DNA from: an uncultured Planctomycetota bacterium
Lineage (GTDB): Bacteria > Planctomycetota > Planctomycetia > Isosphaerales > Isosphaeraceae
Reading direction: 5' to 3'
Length of the DNA: 64,000 nucleotides
Assembly: GCA_963823665.1 (NCBI GenBank)
Contig: CAWGMQ010000010.1
Location: 2,560,001 to 2,624,000 of the forward strand
The notes under the pieces were generated by a model. The model searched no databases, was not told where the DNA came from, and was given only the letters and a program-made list of their open reading frames with translations. How positions within the stretch are numbered: the stretch's first letter is position 1; every line of letters begins with the position of its first letter. The translations under genes and the position numbers were made by a program. This document shows positions 3,193 through 14,892 of the stretch, in pieces.

Positions 3193-3279
3193 ATCGTATC
3201 AATGAATCGTATCAAGGGCGTTTGTATCAGAATTGGTGGGAAAAACGCTTGACTTAAACCTCTTAATGCCAACGAGTTA
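3193..3279. promoter_or_regulatory. Putative integrase arm-type repeats and IHF-like site at an element end
   Basis: ATCGTATCAA direct repeats at 3193 and 3206, partial TGTATCAG at 3223, TAA-N19-TTA at 3255-3279, directly before the tRNA fragment. Confidence 0.5.
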
Positions 3280-3288
3280 GAATCAATT

Positions 3289-3329
3289 GGAGAGGTGACA
3301 GAGTGGTCGATTGTGCGGCACTGGAAATG
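3289..3329 (+). tRNA. 5' half of tRNA-Ser(GGA); pseudo-tRNA / att-site core
   Basis: GGAGAGGTGACAGAGTGGTCGATTGTGCGGCACTGGAAATG gives acceptor 5' strand, D-arm and anticodon arm CGGCA-CT-GGA-AA-TG; no variable arm, T-arm or acceptor 3' strand follows. Confidence 0.8.
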
Positions 3330-3390
3330 ACGTTCAACGGGTGCCTATTGCCCTAAGTTGTTTGGAGACGAGTGGATAGGAAGATCGCCC

Positions 3391-3753
3391 ATGGTCAGCA
3401 AGGACCGTGAACAGACGCGGACAGAGGCCGCCCAGGCGACGCGACGGCAGAAGTCACGTGAGCTTGATGAGGAACACGAGCAGATCCTCAAGAAGGCGCA
3501 GATTTACTTGCTGTTCGAGGCGAAGCGCCCGATGTTCTGGAACGTCGCCGATATCCGAGAGGGGAAGGGCGAGGGTGGCTCACGCCGCTGGATCATTGCC
3601 GTGCATCTCCGTGCTCCGTCTGGGCATGAGGGATATCTGGGCGACCTCCTGTACGATGGCGAGCGGTTCTCGGAGTTGACGGACGTCGAATTGATGCGGC
3701 GGCGAGTGCAGCAGATCACGGCTGACCCCGGAAGTCCGTTGCCGATCGCATGA
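3391..3753 (+). CDS. Hypothetical protein coupled to a C39 peptidase-like gene
   Basis: ATG 3391; ATGA overlap with the next ORF; most of it recurs at 8862-9184. Confidence 0.7.
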   Translation: MVSKDREQTRTEAAQATRRQKSRELDEEHEQILKKAQIYLLFEAKRPMFWNVADIREGKGEGGSRRWIIAVHLRAPSGHEGYLGDLLYDGERFSELTDVELMRRRVQQITADPGSPLPIA

Positions 3754-4247
3754 GTACCGGACTTCCGCACTACCGCCAGGAGAAGAAGAATACCTGCGCC
3801 CTGGCGTGCCTGCGGATGGTCCTTGCTTCCTTCGGCACGGACGTCGAGGAGGGCACGCTCGAGGCCCGGGCGCACATGGAGATCGACGGTACAGAGATCG
3901 GCGAACTTGAGCGTCTTGCGCGGCAGTTCGGGGTCGTCGCAGACATCCAGGAGGCGACAGTGGCGCAGCTTCGGCACCTGCTGGAGGACGGGAAGCTGCC
4001 TATCGTCTACATCGACCGTGCTATCTTTTAATTGCGTCCCCGCCAACGGGCGCAGCACTCCATTCGCGACACCATCATCCACACCGTCATCCCCACGCGG
4101 GTCATTACCAGTTTTGTCACATACCATGACCCTCGCCAAGTTCGGGTCATCCGGAAGACCACTGGCCTCTTCCGTCAGGCATACGAAGCCCTGGGAGGGC
4201 GCTGCGTCGTCTGCTCCAAACCTGCGAGAGGCCTAGACCATGGCTAG
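3750..4247 (+). pseudogene. C39-like cysteine peptidase with in-frame TAA at 4029-4031
   Basis: QEKKNTCALACLRMVL (Q...C), HTVI and YHDP motifs; ORFs 3750-4031 and 4032-4247 share one frame. Confidence 0.75.
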
Positions 4248-4261
4248 CCGTGAGTCTCCCG

Positions 4262-4366
4262 CCGACTGCAAGTGCCTGACGCTCGGCAAAAGGTGGGTGT
4301 CTCACATCCCTGACGCTCGGCAAAAGGTGGGTGTCTCACATCCCAAAGGTGGGTGTCTCACATCCC
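4262..4366 (+). repeat. Element end with three tandem AAAGGTGGGTGTCTCACATCCC copies
   Basis: GGTGTCT at 4296, 4330 and 4352; the 4262-4309 flank resembles the reverse complement of 9373-9421. Confidence 0.85.
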
Positions 4367-4566: not shown

Positions 4567-4980
4567 TCATTTGGCAGTCAGGTGCCAGTTTTCCAGGTTC
4601 AAGTCCGGCACCCGGCTGAACTCTGCGGTATTGGCGGTGACGAGTATAAGACTGGCAGAGCGGGCATGACCGGCCAAGAGCACGTCGTACGCACCGATCA
4701 TACAGCCCTGGGACTCCAAAAGAGCGCGAATGCGCGCGGCTTCCCTCGCGGCCTCTCCGTCAAAAACGAGCTCGCTAATCGTGGCCAGCAGCAGATCAAC
4801 CTTGGCCAGCTCCTTCGCCGGGTCGTCGCACTTTTCGACCCCAGTGAATAGCTCGTAACTTGTAATGCTGGAAATCGCGCAGTCTGCCGGCGGGACCGCA
4901 GCCATGTGTTGCAGCACCAGGGTGTGATGTCGCATCGCGGCAATGCATGTGTTCGTGTCGAGCAGATAGCGTATTGGCAA
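4567..4980 (-). CDS. vapC: VapC PIN-domain toxin
   Basis: YLLDTN, ITSYEL, IGAYDVLLAGHA, LVTANTAEFSRV. Confidence 0.93.
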   Translation of the reverse strand: MPIRYLLDTNTCIAAMRHHTLVLQHMAAVPPADCAISSITSYELFTGVEKCDDPAKELAKVDLLLATISELVFDGEAAREAARIRALLESQGCMIGAYDVLLAGHARSASLILVTANTAEFSRVPDLNLENWHLTAK

Positions 4981-4983
4981 CGA

Positions 4984-5217
4984 TCACCCCAGGATCGGAG
5001 CCGGCGGAACTCGCCCTTGGGTTGGACGCGCGAAGGCCGGATCGTCGATGCGAATGCGATCAAAGAACCCGAGCGGCCATGTCGCGGGCTTGATCGGTTG
5101 CAGGACAAGAGACTCACCCTGCCGTCGAATGGAGACGGTGTCTCCTTCCAGGTGAAACCCCTCCGGCAATTTCACGAGCTGGCAGCCGTCAATCCGTACT
5201 ATTTCAGCGACTTTCAT
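4984..5217 (-). CDS. vapB: VapB (AbrB/MazE-type) antitoxin
   Basis: MKVAEIVRIDGCQLVKLPEGFHL...VSIRRQGESLVLQP immediately upstream of vapC. Confidence 0.85.
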   Translation of the reverse strand: MKVAEIVRIDGCQLVKLPEGFHLEGDTVSIRRQGESLVLQPIKPATWPLGFFDRIRIDDPAFARPTQGRVPPAPILG

Positions 5218-5496
5218 CGCGTTGCCCCTTCTCATACGAAAAGCGTCGCGCATGTCCAATCATAGCAAAGCTAGCGTCCTTCCTCAAATGAGTGGACGAG
5301 GCGAGCCGGTGGATGTGTATCGGAAGGCGAAAGGCTGGTTTTGAGAAACGGGCGCCGGAAACAGGGCCGTAGCTTGTTTTCACCCGGGACAAGACGTTGG
5401 TAGTTCCTGGCAGACGCGCCTGAAACCGCCAGGCGCCTGGTTTCATCTCGCAGGCTTGGTATCAGGGAAGGGCGGATCGGTGTCTCAGAAGAAAAA

Positions 5497-6830: not shown

Positions 6831-6907
6831 CTCGGAGGGTATCATGTTGCGGCGAGAACGCTGACTACATGAGTTGGGGCGCTCATCTGTCCGAGGGAGC
6901 GGTTGCG

Positions 6908-7040
6908 ATGTGGTGGACACCGAGTGGTGAACGAGCGCTGCTTGGCGCGGAGTGGGACTTTTTCCGTGAAGGGCTTCATCACTGTTGGGAGTGGGTCGAG
7001 CAATCGATGAATGATCCTGATCTGTTCCAAACCGGGGTCA
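6908..7040 (+). pseudogene. 5' fragment of a hypothetical gene cut at an element end
   Basis: GAGGGAG RBS then MWWTPSGERALLGAEWDFFREGL...DLFQTGV, followed by element-end and intron sequence. Confidence 0.55.
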
Positions 7041-7048
7041 GGTATGTT

Positions 7049-7781
7049 GCCGGGTCGCCCTGGCGGATCGCTCCGCCAGGGCTCCCACTGATCCGGACGT
7101 GCCCAATTAAGGCATCCGGCTCGTCATGTCGCGGCGTCGCTGTCCCTCACACGATCTGGTCGCCTCGCGGTGACGCGCTCTGAGGTCCAATGCCCTCGGC
7201 GTGGTTCCGGCTTCCAGTCCGCGACACGGTACCCCCTTCGCTCCACAGGGTCTGGGAGGGCCCATTCCCCCGCTTCACTGCTACTACGGAGCACTCCGAC
7301 TCCCGTCCGCCCATTTCGCCGCACTTCGTTGCCTTCGTTTGGCGATACCACCCTTGCGTCTTGTTCGCTCCCAGCGACCCGACGCGGGGTCGTGGGCCGG
7401 GGAGTTGGTATTCCGGTTCCCGAGCCGGAAATGTCAGTGGAGACGGATGGGGCTCTCAGGTTCCCGAGCAACCCTCGCGTCCCTGCGCCATGTTCTTGGA
7501 CCCCGGCAGGACCGAACACGCCAGGCCATTGCGGCGTGTCGACACGGCCCCCGCTTGTGTCTACAACGGAGGCTCCCACGATGAGTATTTCGGGGCTCGA
7601 TAGCATGGCATGGAGACTCGCTGTCTACGCTTCGCAGTGAGGGTCACCCCTCCCCACGCAAGACTTGCTTCCGGCTGCCGGCCAGGCTCTGCCGGGCGGG
7701 ATTCGTTAACCCGCAGGGTCGCGATGAAAGGTTTCTGTGTTTCGAGGCACTTCCTCCTTTCTCGAGCTTTTCCTGACGCAA
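7049..7781 (-). mobile_element. ORF-less group II intron (~733 nt)
   Basis: Minus strand begins TTGCGTCAGGAAAAGC; domain V GAGCCGGATGCC-TTAATT-GGGCACGTCCGGATC (7090-7122); domain VI hairpin ending GCGACCCGGC; EBS1 AGACAC loop (7557-7562) complementary to the 5' exon GTGTCT (7782-7787); no RT ORF. Confidence 0.9.
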
Positions 7782-7992
7782 AGACACCCACCTTCTGCGC
7801 AGCGTCTGACACGCGCTTTCTTCTTGTCGAAATGACGGGCGGCCGTGCCGTGGTTCTTCGCCGAACGTGTGGGCCGCGAACGCATGGATGCGGAGGGCGT
7901 GACAAGAAGGGTGGGTGTCTGGGTTCCTGGATGCGGAGGGCGTGACAAGAAGGGTGGGTGTCTGGGTTCCCGAAGGGTGGGTGTCTGGGTTC
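7782..7992. mobile_element. ~150-bp non-coding element with outward-facing GGGTGTCT ends, copy 1 (left tip 7041-7048 separated by the intron; right end reiterated)
   Basis: AGACACCCACCTT at left; GAAATGAC..GGCCGTG..GAACGTG..TGCGGAG..TGACA core shared with 9373-9519; GGTGTCT at 7914, 7957 and 7980. Confidence 0.75.
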
Positions 7993-8115
7993 CCCTGGGA
8001 GGGCGCTGCGTCGTCTGCTCCAAACCTGCGAGAGGCCTAGACCATGGCTAGCCGTGAGTCTCCCGCCGACTGCAAGTGCCTGACGCTCGGCAAAAGGTGG
8101 GTGTCTCACATCCCT
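7993..8115 (+). repeat. Direct duplicate of 4189-4311 (C39 gene 3' end plus element end)
   Basis: 123 bp, identical by eye, offset 3804. Confidence 0.9.
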
Positions 8116-8184: not shown

Positions 8185-8469
8185 ATGAACGTTTCACTGA
8201 CCAAAGAGTTTGAGAGCTACGTCACGGAGAAGGTTGAGAGCGGCTTGTACCAGTCCGCCAGCGAGGTCATCCGCGATGGGCTCAGGCTGATGAGGGAACG
8301 GGATGAGTTGCACCAAAGCAGGGTGGCCGAGCTTCGCCGAGACATCGCCATAGGCATTGACCAAGCCGAACGTGGGCAGGTGCAGCCTTTCAACGAGGAA
8401 GTCACAGCCCGCGTCAAGGCACGCGGGCGGAAACGCCTGGCGGCCAAAGACAGATCGGACTCGGTATGA
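8185..8469 (+). CDS. parD: ParD-type (CC2985 family) antitoxin
   Basis: MNVSLTKEFESYVTEKVESGLYQSASEVIRDGLRL; AGGAGG RBS. Confidence 0.92.
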   Translation: MNVSLTKEFESYVTEKVESGLYQSASEVIRDGLRLMRERDELHQSRVAELRRDIAIGIDQAERGQVQPFNEEVTARVKARGRKRLAAKDRSDSV

Positions 8470-8756
8470 ATGAGCCGAGGCTCACCGAGCAAGCGGAGGC
8501 CGACCTAGACGAGCTATGGGAATACATCGCGGCGGATAACCCAGACGCCGCCGACCGCATGGTTGATGCCGTTCTGGAGAGCCGCATGCATGTTCGCTTC
8601 CCTGGCATGGGCCAAAACCGCGACGATCTCCGAGTGGGCCTGCGCTGCTTCGTCGTGTCGCCGTACGTAGTGTATTATCGGCCGATCGAGGACACGATCG
8701 AGGTGCTGAGGATTTTGCACGGAGCACGCGATATTAAAAATATCAGCATAGAATGA
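8466..8756 (+). CDS. parE: ParE/RelE family toxin
   Basis: LTEQAEADLDELWEYIAADNPDAADR...YVVYYR...IEVLRILHGARD. Confidence 0.92.
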   Translation: MNEPRLTEQAEADLDELWEYIAADNPDAADRMVDAVLESRMHVRFPGMGQNRDDLRVGLRCFVVSPYVVYYRPIEDTIEVLRILHGARDIKNISIE

Positions 8757-8861: not shown

Positions 8862-9373
8862 CCCAGGCGACGCGACGGCAGAAGTCACGTGAGCTTGATG
8901 AGGAACACGAGCAGATCCTCAAGAATGCGCAGATTTACTTGCTGTTCGAGGCGAAGCGCCCGATGTTCTGGAACGTCGCCGATATCCGAGAGGGGAAGGG
9001 CGAGGGTGGCTCACGCCGCTGGATCATTGCCGTGCATCTCCGTGCTCCGTCTGGGCATGAGGGATATCTGGGCGACCTCCTGTACGACGGTGAGCGGTTC
9101 ACGGAGTTGACGGACGTCGAATTGATGCGGCGGCGAGTGCAGCGGATCACGGCTGACTCCGGAAGTCCGTTGCCGATCGCATGAGTACCGGACTTCCGCA
9201 CTACCGCCAGGAGAAGAAGAATACCTGCGCCCTGGCGTGCCTGCGGATGGTCCTTGCTTCCTTCGGCACGGACGTCGAGGAGGGCACGCTCGAGGCGCGG
9301 GCGCACATGGAGATCGACGGTACAGAGATCGGCGAACTTGAGCGTCTTGCGCGACAGTTCGGGGTCGTCGCAG
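8862..9373 (+). pseudogene. Diverged duplicate of 3431-3942 (hypothetical gene lacking its 5' end plus C39 peptidase lacking its 3' end)
   Basis: 512 bp, offset 5431, about 8 substitutions by eye; ends exactly at an element end. Confidence 0.88.
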
Positions 9374-9704
9374 GATGTAAGACACCCACCTTTTGCCAAG
9401 CAACGGGTACTTGCCGTCGGCGCGTTTGAAATGACCAGAGGCCGTGGTTTTGCGCTGAACGTGCGAGGGGGAATGAATGGGTGCGGAGAACCATGACAGA
9501 AGCATGGGTGTCTGGAATCTGGGTGTCTGGGTGTCTGGGTGTCTGGAATCCTGTGGAATCCTGTGGAATCCTGGGTGTCTGGTATCCCCTGAACATGCGA
9601 GGGGAAATGAATGGGTGCGGAGAACCATGACAGAAGCATGGGTGTCTGGAATCTGTGTGGAATCCTGTGGAATCCTGGGTGTCTGGTATCCCTCTGGTAT
9701 CCCT
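9373..9704. mobile_element. ~150-bp GGGTGTCT element, copy 2, with an expanded array of end repeats
   Basis: GGATGTAAGACACCCACCTTTTGCC at left; GGTGTCT at 9507, 9522, 9530, 9538, 9574, 9641 and 9678; TGTGGAATCC tandems; ~65-bp internal segment duplicated. Confidence 0.8.
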
Positions 9705-10124
9705 GACCAACAGTGAATCACCCAGGATCATCCGGTTCGACCAGTGCTGGTCGTGGTGGTAGAAGTCGATCTTCTTGTCGAAATCGTCGATGCCGTTGAA
9801 ATCGGCGAAGAGGGTCAGTTGCTCTTCGGGCTTGCCTTTTTTTCGCTGGGCGAGCAGGTCATCGATGATCGCCTGGGGGTGGATCTTTTCCTGGATGTAG
9901 ACTGGCACGATTGGAACTGCCAGGTCTTGGCGGTCTTGGTCGTCTTTGCCTTTCCAGACGAGTTGGGGGTCGAGCGAGGGATCGCGGGGGTAGAGCATCG
10001 TCCTGGGGGCTGCTTCATCGTCGGCGATGAAGTCGCGCAACTCTTCGGTGGGGATGTTTTTCCGCTTGTCTTTGTGGCGAGTGAATTCGACTTTGGTTTC
10101 GGGCGGCGGCTTCTTTTTGGCCAT
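9705..10124 (-). pseudogene. mod: Type III R-M methyltransferase (Mod) N-terminal fragment
   Basis: RKNIPTEE, RDPSLDPQLVWKGKD, YIQEKIHP, WSNRMILGDSLLV, then runs into the repeat array before any DPPY motif. Confidence 0.85.
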
Positions 10125-10474
10125 CAGGGGTGCGACTCCGGAGGCTGCGGGATCAAGGGTTCCAATTGTTCGAGCAGTTGATCTGCCTTGGTGGTGGCGA
10201 TATTCCACACAATATCGAGCTTAACGTTCTCGTAGCCATGAATGATTCGATTGCGCGTGCCGATGATGTCGCGCCACGGTATTTCAGAGTGAGCTTGACG
10301 AAACTCGGGTGATAGGCGGGTTGCCGCTTCACCGATCAGTGCGGTCGCATGAAGAACCGCATACTGCAAGACTTCGTCGCTCTGGAGCTCGTCAAATGTC
10401 CTGCCCGCGACGAATCGCCGCAGCTTGCGACAGGCAAGGACGATGTCGAGGATTGAACCCGGGTCACGATCCAT
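10124..10474 (-). CDS. HepT-like (DUF86) HEPN ribonuclease toxin
   Basis: IGEAA, IPWRDIIGTRNRIIHGY (R-x4-H-x-Y). Confidence 0.9.
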   Translation of the reverse strand: MDRDPGSILDIVLACRKLRRFVAGRTFDELQSDEVLQYAVLHATALIGEAATRLSPEFRQAHSEIPWRDIIGTRNRIIHGYENVKLDIVWNIATTKADQLLEQLEPLIPQPPESHP

Positions 10475-10796
10475 AGATCACCTGCGCTGTCTCGAGAATG
10501 TGGTTCCTTCGTATCCAATTCTCGCTCTGCAGGACGCTCTCCTTCGTAACGACGTCGACCTCGCGGCCGACCAAGGCGCTGAGGTCGTTTTCGAGTTGCT
10601 GTACTCTTGACATCCAGGGTCCGTAATCATCGTTTCGAAACACGACCATGAAGTCGACGTCGCTCTCAGGGCCGAAGTCGTCGCGCAGGAATGACCCGAA
10701 TACGAATAGCTGGACCACGTCAGACATGCGGCAGATTTCGGCTATTCGGTCCAGCGGCAATCGAATGCCGTTCCGCTCGATCGGTTGGGTGATCAT
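10464..10796 (-). CDS. MNT nucleotidyltransferase antitoxin
   Basis: VFGSFLRDDFGPESDVDFMV (GS-x10-DxD), GREVDVV. Confidence 0.9.
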   Translation of the reverse strand: MITQPIERNGIRLPLDRIAEICRMSDVVQLFVFGSFLRDDFGPESDVDFMVVFRNDDYGPWMSRVQQLENDLSALVGREVDVVTKESVLQSENWIRRNHILETAQVIYGS

Positions 10797-10849: not shown

Positions 10850-13800
10850 TTTTTCGGGCTTTCCGGCAGGGACCGAACGAATTTGTTCCAGGACTTCGTA
10901 TGGGTCGGTGACCTCCAGGAATCTCCAGCGGCCGAAGGCGCCGTGGTTGTTGACGGCCGGCACCCAGAGGGTGCGCGCCGTCATCACCTTGGCAGCTTTT
11001 TCCTTCTTCTTTTCGCCGGTCACTTCGATGATCAGGTTCAGCGGGTCGAGCAGGCCGCGGCCGTCGTCGAGCACGGCTACGAAGTCAGGGTGGTACTGAT
11101 GCTCCTCACCGTTGATTGTATAGGGGATCGTGAAGCCGAGGTTGTGGTTCTTCGACGTAGCGGATCACCTCGTCCATGTCTCTTCCAGGGTTTGGGCCAT
11201 CTTTTGCTCCCAGCTGTCGGTGTCGGCGACGACGTGGGAGACGTGGCACTTGTCGGCGCGAGTGGCGAAAACCGGGCCGGGTCGTGTCGAAATCGACGTA
11301 GCGGGTCGAGCCGATCGTGTCGTACGGACGGAGGATCGGCCGGAGCGATGGCGGTCCGTCCGGCGAACCTTTGGAGCCGCGCACGATCGCGCCGTAGATC
11401 CGGTCGGCGGCGTCGTGGGCAAACTCGACCAGGAGCAGGAGCTGCGGGAACGTGTGGTCCTTGCAGTGGACGTAACCTCTCGAGCCATCGCTTGGCAATC
11501 GCGAGCACCTGCGGGAACAACCAGGCCTGCACCTCGCTGTCGAATCGGTGGACGGCGGTCTTCTCTTTGCCGGATCTCGCCGTCCTGGCGGAAGTATTTC
11601 TCCAAGCGTGAGCTTGGCCAGCAGGAACGCGACCTCGCTCGGGCGGCGCTTCTTGAGATCGTCGAGCGAGTGGATGCTGCTTTCGCCCACGATCGGGGCG
11701 TTCTCGGTCTTGATCGGGATGTCGGCCGTCGTGAGCGTCAGCCGCGAGTCGTCGGTGAACTCGGGCGTTAGCTTCCTTGTGGGTAGCTCGTAGCGGTAGC
11801 CGAGCAGGCGCGGGAAGGTGATCTCGCAGGCGAGCCGGCTCTCGAGGGCGCGGACGCGGGTCGGCATCGGGCCGGGCTTGGGGTTGGCGATCGAGCCGGA
11901 GCAGGGGATGAACGAGAACGGCACGCCGTAGATCTCGGCGTATTCGGGCTCGAACCGCCCTTCCGCGTTGGCGGCGTAGCTCATTCGTCGCAGGGCGCGG
12001 CCGACGACCTGCTCGCAAAGAAGCTGGGTGCCGAAGGCACGCACGCCCAGGACGTGGGTGACGGTGTTGGCGTCCCAGCCTTCGGTGAGCATCGAGACGC
12101 TGACGACGCACTTGACGTGCTCGCCGAGCTTGCCGGGCTTGCCGACGGTGTTCATGACCTCGCGGAGCAGGTCTTCCTCGGTGAGCTGTCGGCGTCGCGG
12201 CCCGGGAAATCGGGCGCGGTACTCGGCCTTGAATTCCTCGATCTCGCGAGCGGCGATCTTCTTGAAGTCGGCGCTCATGCCCTCGCCGGATTCGAGCTGC
12301 TCGCTGTCGACCAGGATCGTGTTGGGGCGCGGGCTCCAGCGTCCGTCTTTCTCGTTGTTGAAGAGCGGCAACCGGCCGGGGACGACGATGGTTTCGGTGT
12401 CGGAAATCGACCTTTTCCCAGCCGGAGATGTAGTTGAAGACCAGCTTCGAAACGTTGGTGTTGTTGCAGACGACGATGAAGACTGGGGGTGTGATTCCCT
12501 TGGCCTGGGCGTCGGCGTTTTGCTCCCAGAGCTCGTGGTACTTCTTGTAGTTGCCGTACAGGCTCTGGATGGCCCCTTCGAGCTCGGCGGGAAGCTTTGG
12601 TTCTTCGTCGAGCTCTTCGGTCTTCCGGCCTTTCCTGGGAAGGTGCTCGCGGATGCGGAGCCAGAGGTCGCGGTAGGTGGGCTGGTCGCCCTGCATCGAG
12701 TCGTCGGAGACCGGGACGCGGGGGACTTTGACGATGCCGGATTCGATCGCGTCGATCAGGGAGAAGTCGGAGACGACCCAGGGGAAGAGCGTTCCCTCGG
12801 GGTAGCCTGAGCCGCGGAGGAAGAACGGGGTGGCCGAGAGGTCGAAGATCGCCCGGACGCCGATCTTGGCTTTGACGGCCTCGATGCCGGAGATCCAGAT
12901 TCGGGCTTCATTGTCGCGTTTCTCAGCCTCTTTGCGATCGTCGCCGATCAGCGTCTCGGCTGCTTCGGGGTCCTCCGGCTTGCGGCGGTAGCAGTGGTGG
13001 GCTTCGTCGTTGATGACGATGATGTTCTTCTTGGTGCCCAGCTCGCGGCAGACGCGGCGGACCATCTGATCGGGAGACTCGGTGAAGATGCCGGGCGTGC
13101 CCTCGGAGAGGATTCCCTTGGTGACCTTGCCGGCGCTGATCTTCTCGCGAAGCTGGAAGGCGTGAAAGTTGGTGATGACGATCCGGGCCTGGCCGAGCTT
13201 TTCAAGCTGATGGCCGGGTACGATGTCGCGCAGGCGGTAGTAGTTGTTGGGGTCGTTGGGGAGCAGGACGCGTAGGCGGTCGCGGATGGTGATGCCGGGG
13301 CTCACGATCAGGAACGTGTCGCCGAAGCGGGCGTCGTGGGGGTTAGCCAGTTTGTTGAGCGACTGCCAGGCGATCAGCATGGCCATGACGACGGTTTTGC
13401 CCGAGCCGGTGGCCATCTTGAAGGCGAAGCGCGGCAGGCCGGGATTTGACGTGTCGTTGCCTTTGCGGACGTCTTCTTCGATCGAGGCGTCGCCGAATTT
13501 CCGGGCGACCTCGTTGATGTAGATGATCGTTTCCAGCGCCTCGATCTGGCAGAAGAAGAGCTTTCGCTCACGTTCGGGGTCGGTCCAGTATTTCAGGAGC
13601 GCGGTCGTCGTGGGGGTGACGCCGATGTGGCCCCCTTCACGCCACATGCCGACTCGACGGCGGATGTGGTTGACGCTCTTGTTTTCTTCGATGCGGTCTT
13701 GGGTCCATTCGGTGTCGAAGACGAGCTGCTTACCCTTTTTCTTCGGGCGGGCGATGGGGATGAAGTAGGAGCTGCTGCGGCGACCGTCGACGATTTCGTT

Positions 13801-13890
13801 GGTGATTCCCTCGTCGGTGAATTTGAAGTGGCGCGCCGGCGCGGCGAAGGGGGAGTTCAGGATCGGGTTTTCAATCAGGGCGTCGGGCAT
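10829..13890 (-). CDS. res: Type III restriction endonuclease (Res, BPTD_3080-like), split by several frameshifts
   Basis: IENPILNSPF, FCQIEA, MATGSGKT, DEAHHCY, SATP, SMLTEGWD, EQVVGRALRR, IIEVTG..W..AVNN; frameshifts between ~11100 and ~12400. Confidence 0.9.
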
Positions 13891-14892
13891 CGGGCAAGCC
13901 TTGACGGTCATTCGATCGCAGCGGCGGGCTTCGCCGGCTCAGCGCGGCGTTTCTGCACCGTGGGCGCGATGAGCGGGATTTTATCATATGGGAGACCGGG
14001 ATTTCTATTCCTTTGTCCACTGCGGGTGGGAATTGCTCGGTTGTCGGTAGTCGGTGGACAGAGTCCGGTCGTGGCCCCATTGCCTTGAGACGCCTGCGAT
14101 TGGTTGGCGCGGGACATGGCCGGGGCGTGGCCGACAGGGGTGCCGGCGCCACGGCGCCTGCAAAAGTGCGCAAATACAGAGTCAATTTTCTTACTTATTC
14201 GATCTGATCGCTGGAACCCGGATTCTTTCTGGAAATTTCCCGGTCGACGGCGCGTCGAGTCTGCAAAGTCACCGCATACTGTAGAAAGTGAATAAAGGAT
14301 CCGAGCGTGCGACGAAACGCCTTGGCCAGAGGGGAGAACCGCGAGAGAAAGTGAGAGTGAGTTTTTCAAAATCAGTAACATCCAGCGACATTTCGTGACA
14401 TGAAGGAAGAGTTTTCGAAGTCACGCGCCGGTGCATGCCTTCGGAACGAGTTTCTTCCTTACTTAACCACAGCATGGGCGGCAGTTCTTCGCCATCGTTC
14501 CCAGCGTTGGTCACCTGCCTCCACACCGACACGCACAATCACGCCGCTTTCGGTGCTGGTCGCGAATTGAACCGAATCCCTTCGCGGAGCGAACGGCGAC
14601 ATTGGGCTGGCCGCGCCCAGACGCTGGGCTCTGCGGTTTGGCCAGCGCGAGAGCCCCCGTCCGCCGCCGGCGGCGGCACTTTTTCGCACAATTGGGGCTT
14701 TATGCCTCTGGCAGTTCCGATTATGCGGGCGGGCGGAAAAACTTTTTTTGAGATCCGGCAATTTCGGGCAAAAAAAGAAGCGGGTTTGTAGATCATCTCT
14801 GTAAAGGGCTTTGGGAAGTTTGGGGAAATTCTCGGGGTCGCGGGACTTCGGGCCAGGCTTCCAAGCTTATTTGAATAGGAATGTATACTGAT

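Follow-up and report, generated by a model that had tools for sequence, protein, structure and literature searches.

Among described group II introns, the closest parallel to the one reported here is RmInt2 of S. meliloti GR4 (class D), which is described in PMC4615759 as an endonuclease-less intron inserting into both inverted repeats of another mobile element (ISRm17). It is multicopy, forms head-to-tail copies, and always has one of its sites on the favored strand. Our intron, which lies in a 64,000-nt stretch of DNA from an uncultured Planctomycetota bacterium (the window), resembles it in these respects, but it occupies a non-coding repeat, probably of TIRYT type, its main mobile form lacks an ORF, the RT resembles those of class E, and a clade spanning many genera has the same habit. 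A second parallel is TeI3 of Thermosynechococcus elongatus (PMC2882425), where, as here, ORF-less copies outnumber RT-bearing ones and would depend on a sister protein (for our intron an inferred dependence), EBS-divergent families have different targets, and twintrons occur. The TeI introns differ in being CL/IIB1 and in having arisen by one clean deletion, whereas our ORF-less form is chimeric-looking and a single motif serves two families, one on each strand. Trans-mobilization of ORF-less introns has been demonstrated in T. elongatus (PMC2882425), and by analogy the window intron may be mobilized by the RT of its sister.

The IIC-attC introns and the integron-associated IIB introns (PMC7923331, PMC4424553) likewise specialize in recombination-type sites that recur among toxin-antitoxin genes. 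IIC introns combine a 3-4 bp EBS1 with a DNA hairpin, whereas the window intron has a 6-bp EBS1, and no IntI match above the cut-off was found. On the side of the host element, the relevant class is that of the TIRtrons (TIRYT; PMC3733652; subclass 2.1 in 10.1101/279083), Y1 genes lying between inverted repeats that form dimers and clusters and have the consensus core GGGGWSAS (Di Nocera 2013, PMC3733652). Relatives of the window intron occupy such repeats; the motif at our locus departs from the consensus and reads GGGTGTCTG. The available text of PMC3733652 makes no mention of introns inserted in TIRtron repeats, and that of 10.1101/279083 mentions introns once, in an unrelated context. A table row in PMC1525189 associates 2 of 9 P. 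putida introns with REPs, and introns hiding in mobile elements are surveyed in general in PMC8919778 and PMC7306698. We found no literature report of an intron lineage on TIRYT (or TIR/REP) repeats, a type of target that supplementary or subscription intron tables could list. Since RmInt2 in ISRm17 ends and the ORF-less introns of T. elongatus have already made the general strategy known, the surprise to specialists should be moderate.

The window sequence from 7781 to 7049 (minus strand) is an ORF-less group II intron, with junctions reading exon ...AAGGTGGGTGTCT / TTGCG ... CCCGGC / AACATACC. The first-pass annotation had set the same boundaries, and the uninterrupted ends that it had cited for comparison are present at 8094-8114 (/CACATCCC) and 9392-9373 (/TACATCC). 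We are fairly confident that the locus represents a class-E-like ORF-less intron that retrohomes into an inverted-repeat end motif by means of the RT of a near-identical sister. Its parts are as follows (window coordinates).

7049-7781, minus strand: ORF-less group II intron, 733 nt, TTGCG...CCCGGC, with identical ends in 13 full-length genomic copies
7491-7705, minus strand: domain I segment, Rfam RF02005 match (138.4 bits, E 2.7e-39)
7547-7573, minus strand: EBS1 hairpin, domain Id3, placed by RF02005, fold and covariation
7557-7562, minus strand: EBS1 (AGACAC), complement of 7782-7787
7782-7787, minus strand: IBS1 (GTGTCT), the end of the 5' exon, pairing with EBS1
7131-7234, minus strand: short domain IV without RT, nearer the second ORF-less family (77/98) than the RT-bearing sister
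7090-7122, minus strand: domain V, with AGC triad and 5-nt loop (sequence and fold)
7049-7087, minus strand: domain VI, with a bulged A at 7055 as predicted branch point
7041-7048, minus strand: 3' exon, comprising the outer 8 nt of the element end that the intron splits

A comparison with Rfam agreed with this assignment, the RF02005 model (group II D1-D4) scoring 138 bits against a gathering threshold of 49 at 7705-7491. The only other Rfam hit was an overlapping match of the same clan, omitted by the tool, and no match to a D5/D6 model was listed at E<=1 in 6900-7900; by energy folding, D5 and D6 at 7049-7122 form two separate hairpins. The intron termini are UUGCG...GC rather than GUGYG...AY. 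A TTGCG start was found in 47 of 68 relatives and is therefore a terminus variant common to most of the lineage; UUGCG is also described in PMC7923331. The absence of an RT was confirmed, the copy being too short and lacking the 450-aa domain IV frame of its sisters.

In the comparison of RT classes, the sister RT scored 259 bits against the disrupted RT of pRmeGR4b, and 158 and 145 bits against presumed class D and F RTs, with one reference per class and reference identities that were themselves inferred. The pRmeGR4b RT is taken to be the class E intron S.me.I4 (PMC5894124), and Ni.ha.I1 is given as class F/g3 in PMC3552965. The 5-nt domain V loop, described as an IIE/IIF feature in PMC3753933, is present and common to classes E and F, and the length of 733 nt slightly exceeds the quoted 450-700 nt. 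The ORF-less intron thus likely belongs to class E.

Relatives were drawn from 61 related genomes and 80 GTDB loci. Their EBS1 hairpins covary with their targets: 36 of 52 distinct hairpins complement their own last six exon bases at 6/6, while 1000 exon permutations gave 2.0 perfect hairpins on average and never more than 7 (the 52 include five rows with mis-called 5' ends, which the target-class and tree analyses exclude, reducing 73 rows to 68). This upholds the EBS1-IBS1 pairing first proposed from an exact six-base complement, and covariation also places AGACAC as EBS1, although the energy fold of the hairpin at 7573-7547 leaves only AGAC of these bases unpaired. A candidate EBS2, UCAUC against GRTGG, fits the window intron by eye and does not fit the relatives, among which no position covaries with the first base of the 3' exon (EBS3). 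Natural re-targeting of EBS1 can be read from the sequences of the relatives.

In the genome to which the window belongs (G000; 16.5 Mb, 92% complete), Pfam matches such as DUF1559 and the nearest named RTs indicate a planctomycete. This genome was analyzed by searching it and by retrieving about 0.9 Mb of its regions, so that copy numbers are lower bounds; the searches scored the best 40 of 85 candidates for the intron, 40 of 104 for the element, and 40 of 76 in another search. Among the best 40 of the 85, we identified at least 14 ORF-less copies that are 97-100% identical (13 full-length and 1 interrupted after domain V by another intron) and at least 6 RT-bearing sisters, among them those at C6:911026 and C6:1319464, which match intron nt 1-547 at 95-96% and carry the RT gene in domain IV. 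A search by 5'-end pattern with mismatches overlooked copies that are one A shorter and contributed a single new sequence, a 20-nt relic. The sister RT passes the TIGR04416 cut-off and has no HNH domain; the full 450-aa YADD protein is encoded by 2 of the 6 sisters, the other 4 having frameshifts. A related RT-encoding intron, which the first-pass annotation had proposed to look for, is thus present in the same genome. Collectively, these data indicate that the ORF-less intron is real and probably active.

Simple deletion from the sister does not account for the ORF-less form, because its nt 496-651 resemble a second ORF-less family (identical at 45/50 and 77/98) more than the RT sister (40/49, after which only 36 of 104 nt are alignable), whereas nt 1-495 are identical to the sister at 485 of 493 positions. 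It looks chimeric, with domains I-II from the sister and domains III-IV from an older ORF-less line, and may have arisen by a domain swap in either direction. The second G000 family is 72-73% identical to the first, has the loop TGTCTG, and inserts after CAGACA, that is, on the opposite strand of the same motif. Such insertions were found at L023, L028, and L029, and with one mismatch at L025, with further members at other sites; the second-family loci L023, L025, L028, L029, and L068 lie in G000 and a related genome, G001. The motif is enriched in G001, G030, G033, and G028. The G030 intron has the same EBS1 and exon as that of G000, the G033 intron lies after GGGTGTCT, and G001 has the opposite-strand family.

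All 20 first-family copies in G000 lie directly 3' of TGGGTGTCY, 19 after TGGGTGTCT (with T) and 1 after TGGGTGTCC (with C), and each is followed by an octamer of the repeat type whose first base is G or A. In this genome, TGGGTGTCT occurs 334 times, compared with 45 times for the reversed control, and GTGTCT occurs at least 3,056 times, 334 of them in the TGGGTGTCT context. Since most GTGTCT sites lack that context, the insertion pattern is not due to chance. Three further junctions, in two other soil data sets, likewise follow TGGGTGTCT. The abundance of unoccupied sites anticipated by the first-pass annotation was confirmed, since 156 of the TGGGTGTCT sites in the retrieved regions are free and 25 are occupied (5' relics tallied as occupied).

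Most of the motif sites are the ends of an element of ~150 bp, whose interior of about 135-139 bp is flanked at both ends by 8 conserved outer nt. Conservation of free ends ceases at +8. The element occurs in at least 40 copies in G000 (the best 40 of 104) and is also found in G001. In and beside the interrupted copy, the window holds the following.

7782-7928, no strand assigned: host element of ~150 bp with inverted end motifs (inner 139 bp and the 8 outer nt of the far end)
7929-7994, plus strand: two tandem extra far-end motifs, fused to a 3' C39 peptidase gene fragment
8064-8114, plus strand: free partial element end
9373-9521, no strand assigned: free full element, truncating a C39 peptidase gene copy
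4260-4366, plus strand: free partial element carrying three end motifs in tandem

Thirteen of the 20 introns lie in ends of the main element (11 in one end and 2 in the other), and 7 lie in other repeats that carry the motif, so that the target is the motif and not the whole element. This modifies the earlier view, in which insertion was tied to the element: the uniform 5' exon stands, and the seven exceptions lie outside the main element but within motif-bearing repeats. The target is best described as a 17-20 nt end motif common to several repeat subfamilies. A multicopy repeat end is indeed parasitized, as proposed, but its likeness is to TIRYT terminal inverted repeats and not to REPs of the GTAG type, as the element ends listed have no GTAG foot.

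The link to TIRYT elements comes largely from the relatives. Their common target sites, CTGACA/CC, CTGACC/CC, and RTGTCC/CC, are reverse complements of repeats beside RAYT-like Y1 genes in the same genomes, and at L131, L139, L151, and L163 the intron lies inside a repeat adjoining a Y1 gene. In a quick RT tree, TIR-core targets account for 22 of 26 rows in the clade holding the G000 sister, compared with 2 of 26 outside it; the clade has an SH-aLRT of only 80 and includes identical rows, and target classes were set after the motifs had been seen. A Y1 gene is present in 6 of 38 TIR-class loci and in 0 of 30 others. The GGGTGTCTG motif resembles GGTGTCAG variants beside Y1 genes. For an autonomous partner, we searched the Y1 genes of G000 (itself 92% complete, as given above) and 17 relatives: none of the 74 rows has TGGGTGTCT as its own upstream repeat, and the TIRYT link of the host therefore rests on resemblance and on the relatives. 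One Y1 gene is truncated by the element, and a scan of metagenomes with an 18-nt motif gave 8 matches, none carrying the element. We consider the host element likely to be a TIR dimer that is non-autonomous and depends for its movement on an HUH enzyme of the TIRYT type.

The lack of a matching Y1 gene, together with the multicopy state and the terminal inverted repeats, would also suit an ordinary MITE of a DDE transposase, which would leave the intron mechanism unchanged. We regard this as improbable, though it survives better than the other alternatives, because no target-site duplication is visible in the listed flanks, the motif looks like repeats that flank Y1 genes in the same genome and family and lies just 3' of 3 of the 74 Y1 rows, and the closest RT relatives target TIRYT repeats.

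Within clusters, the ~150-bp elements are nearly all co-oriented and 1-7 kb apart (L367-L374 in G001 and L031-L046 in G000), which could reflect strand-biased insertion or an array. In addition, the ends of the element are able to fold onto each other. Co-orientation in two genomes, this folding, and the toxin-antitoxin and small genes between elements would fit an attC-like site of an integron-like cassette array, with the intron recognizing a hairpin in the manner of IIC-attC introns. Such an array is very unlikely, however, given that none of 18 integron integrase matches is above the cut-off, that a ribosomal protein gene and genes in both orientations lie between the elements, that elements truncate genes, that 7 of 20 introns sit in repeats sharing the motif alone, and that EBS1 is a full 6 bp. 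Passive multiplication of a no longer mobile intron with duplicated element ends is the least probable reading and is largely refuted: although a tandem intron pair at C10:1.458 Mb has a common flank and the window and its vicinity contain duplicated segments with element ends as their borders, near-identical introns (97-100% alike) occupy both element ends and unrelated subfamilies with differing 3' exons, while the host elements match a reference copy at only about 82-93%.

Occupancy is one-sided with respect to strand. Of the sites in three multi-copy clusters, those on the plus strand are occupied in 11 of 18 cases and those on the minus strand in 0 of 25, and both elements that are flipped against their neighbors have the intron in the other end, with the strand kept. 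Endonuclease-less introns are described as priming on replication-fork strands (PMC4424553, PMC5894124); GC skew, taken as an indicator of the lagging strand, was noisy and inconsistent between regions. Contigs of public runs, a weak basis for such a test, showed no empty allele, spliced joint, or circle, and those of RNA runs cover the intron only piecewise and likewise show neither exon joint nor circle.

We propose that the intron RNA would splice with the help of the sister intron's protein, pair with the end motif through EBS1, perhaps assisted by a short EBS2, and reverse-splice into single-stranded DNA at the replication fork, where it would be copied. Insertion splits the repeat end and usually lands in intergenic DNA, the inverted ends of the element supply a site on either strand, and EBS1 has been re-tuned across the lineage to the TIR variant of each host genome.

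Reverse splicing had also been suggested as a contributor to the rearrangements around the locus, and this part of the first-pass annotation is not supported. The duplicated segments in or near the window end at 4311, 4344, 8115, and 9373, which is 7-9 nt beyond GTGTCT, at the outer edge of the element; reverse splicing would break at 0 and is thus an unlikely cause. Two of these ends cut a C39 peptidase gene. Five repeat ends elsewhere have exactly the first 8 intron nt followed by foreign DNA (two different partners), and a sixth has 20 nt.

G000 C3:130.2k, 131.5k, 198.3k, 200.6k; C10:1466.5k; C3:1268.7k: intron relics, five of 8 nt and one of 20 nt

These positions suggest that the element's own enzyme, putatively of the TIRYT-type HUH kind, would cut about 8 nt outside the splice site and could strip the intron. 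The 8-nt relics and the breakpoints indicate a candidate, testable cut site.

A third intron, of RT-HNH (CL-like) type, lies between domains V and VI of both families and creates twintrons; 4 of the 6 RT sisters carry it.

L034:13783-16202 (G000 C6:913.8-916.2 kb): RT-HNH intron with a 634-aa frame, the same frame occurring in six more RT matches

At the D5/D6 site of the first family, one variant is interrupted in 5 of 7 copies and a variant changed at a single base in 0 of 13. The 13 uninterrupted copies stem from one recent burst, and the contrast in site escape is thus a lead only. A broader scenario is speculative: the host repeat would be the recombination site of an undescribed HUH-driven shuffling system that cuts it 8 nt outside GTGTCT and rearranges genes between co-oriented sites, and it would carry a three-tier chain of introns. 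In that chain, two families would use opposite strands and a third intron would attack the D5/D6 junction, and the ORF-less form would have escaped the latter by one base and would swap its targeting domain with RT-bearing introns. We put forward this combination, taken as a whole, as a doubtful possibility.

Collectively, the results add to the single rhizobial example of element-end introns a clade that follows TIRYT repeats in Planctomycetota and beyond, and such introns can serve as markers of the ends of this almost unstudied class of elements, whose name occurs in two of the papers listed. At 733 nt, and with an RT donor to match, the ORF-less intron also offers a compact system for targetron or trans-maturase work.

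The surroundings of the elements hold further features. A module of a hypothetical protein and a C39 peptidase occurs in multiple copies and fragments that end at element edges. The elements are surrounded by genes for a PIN toxin and its probable antitoxin, for ParD-ParE, for HepT and a nucleotidyltransferase, and for a type III restriction subunit.

Window 3275-4344, 7993-8115, 8862-9373; L038:15887-16956: C39 module copies and fragments
Window 4567-5259, 8185-8756, 10124-10796, 11077-13911: toxin-antitoxin and restriction genes

Where the element joined a gene copy (window 3930-3946 compared with 9364-9392), the intact gene reads GACATCC, which is the reverse complement of the outer end of the element; target choice by the element through base pairing is therefore possible. 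A short frame at ~9710-10208, which has no Pfam match, may be a methylase fragment cut by an element. The upstream region of the window contains ParA and RepA genes and is perhaps an integrated element. Finally, in a sister clade (L162, L164, and L166), introns lie after AAAAAAG, which we take to be the frameshift motif of IS3-type transposases.
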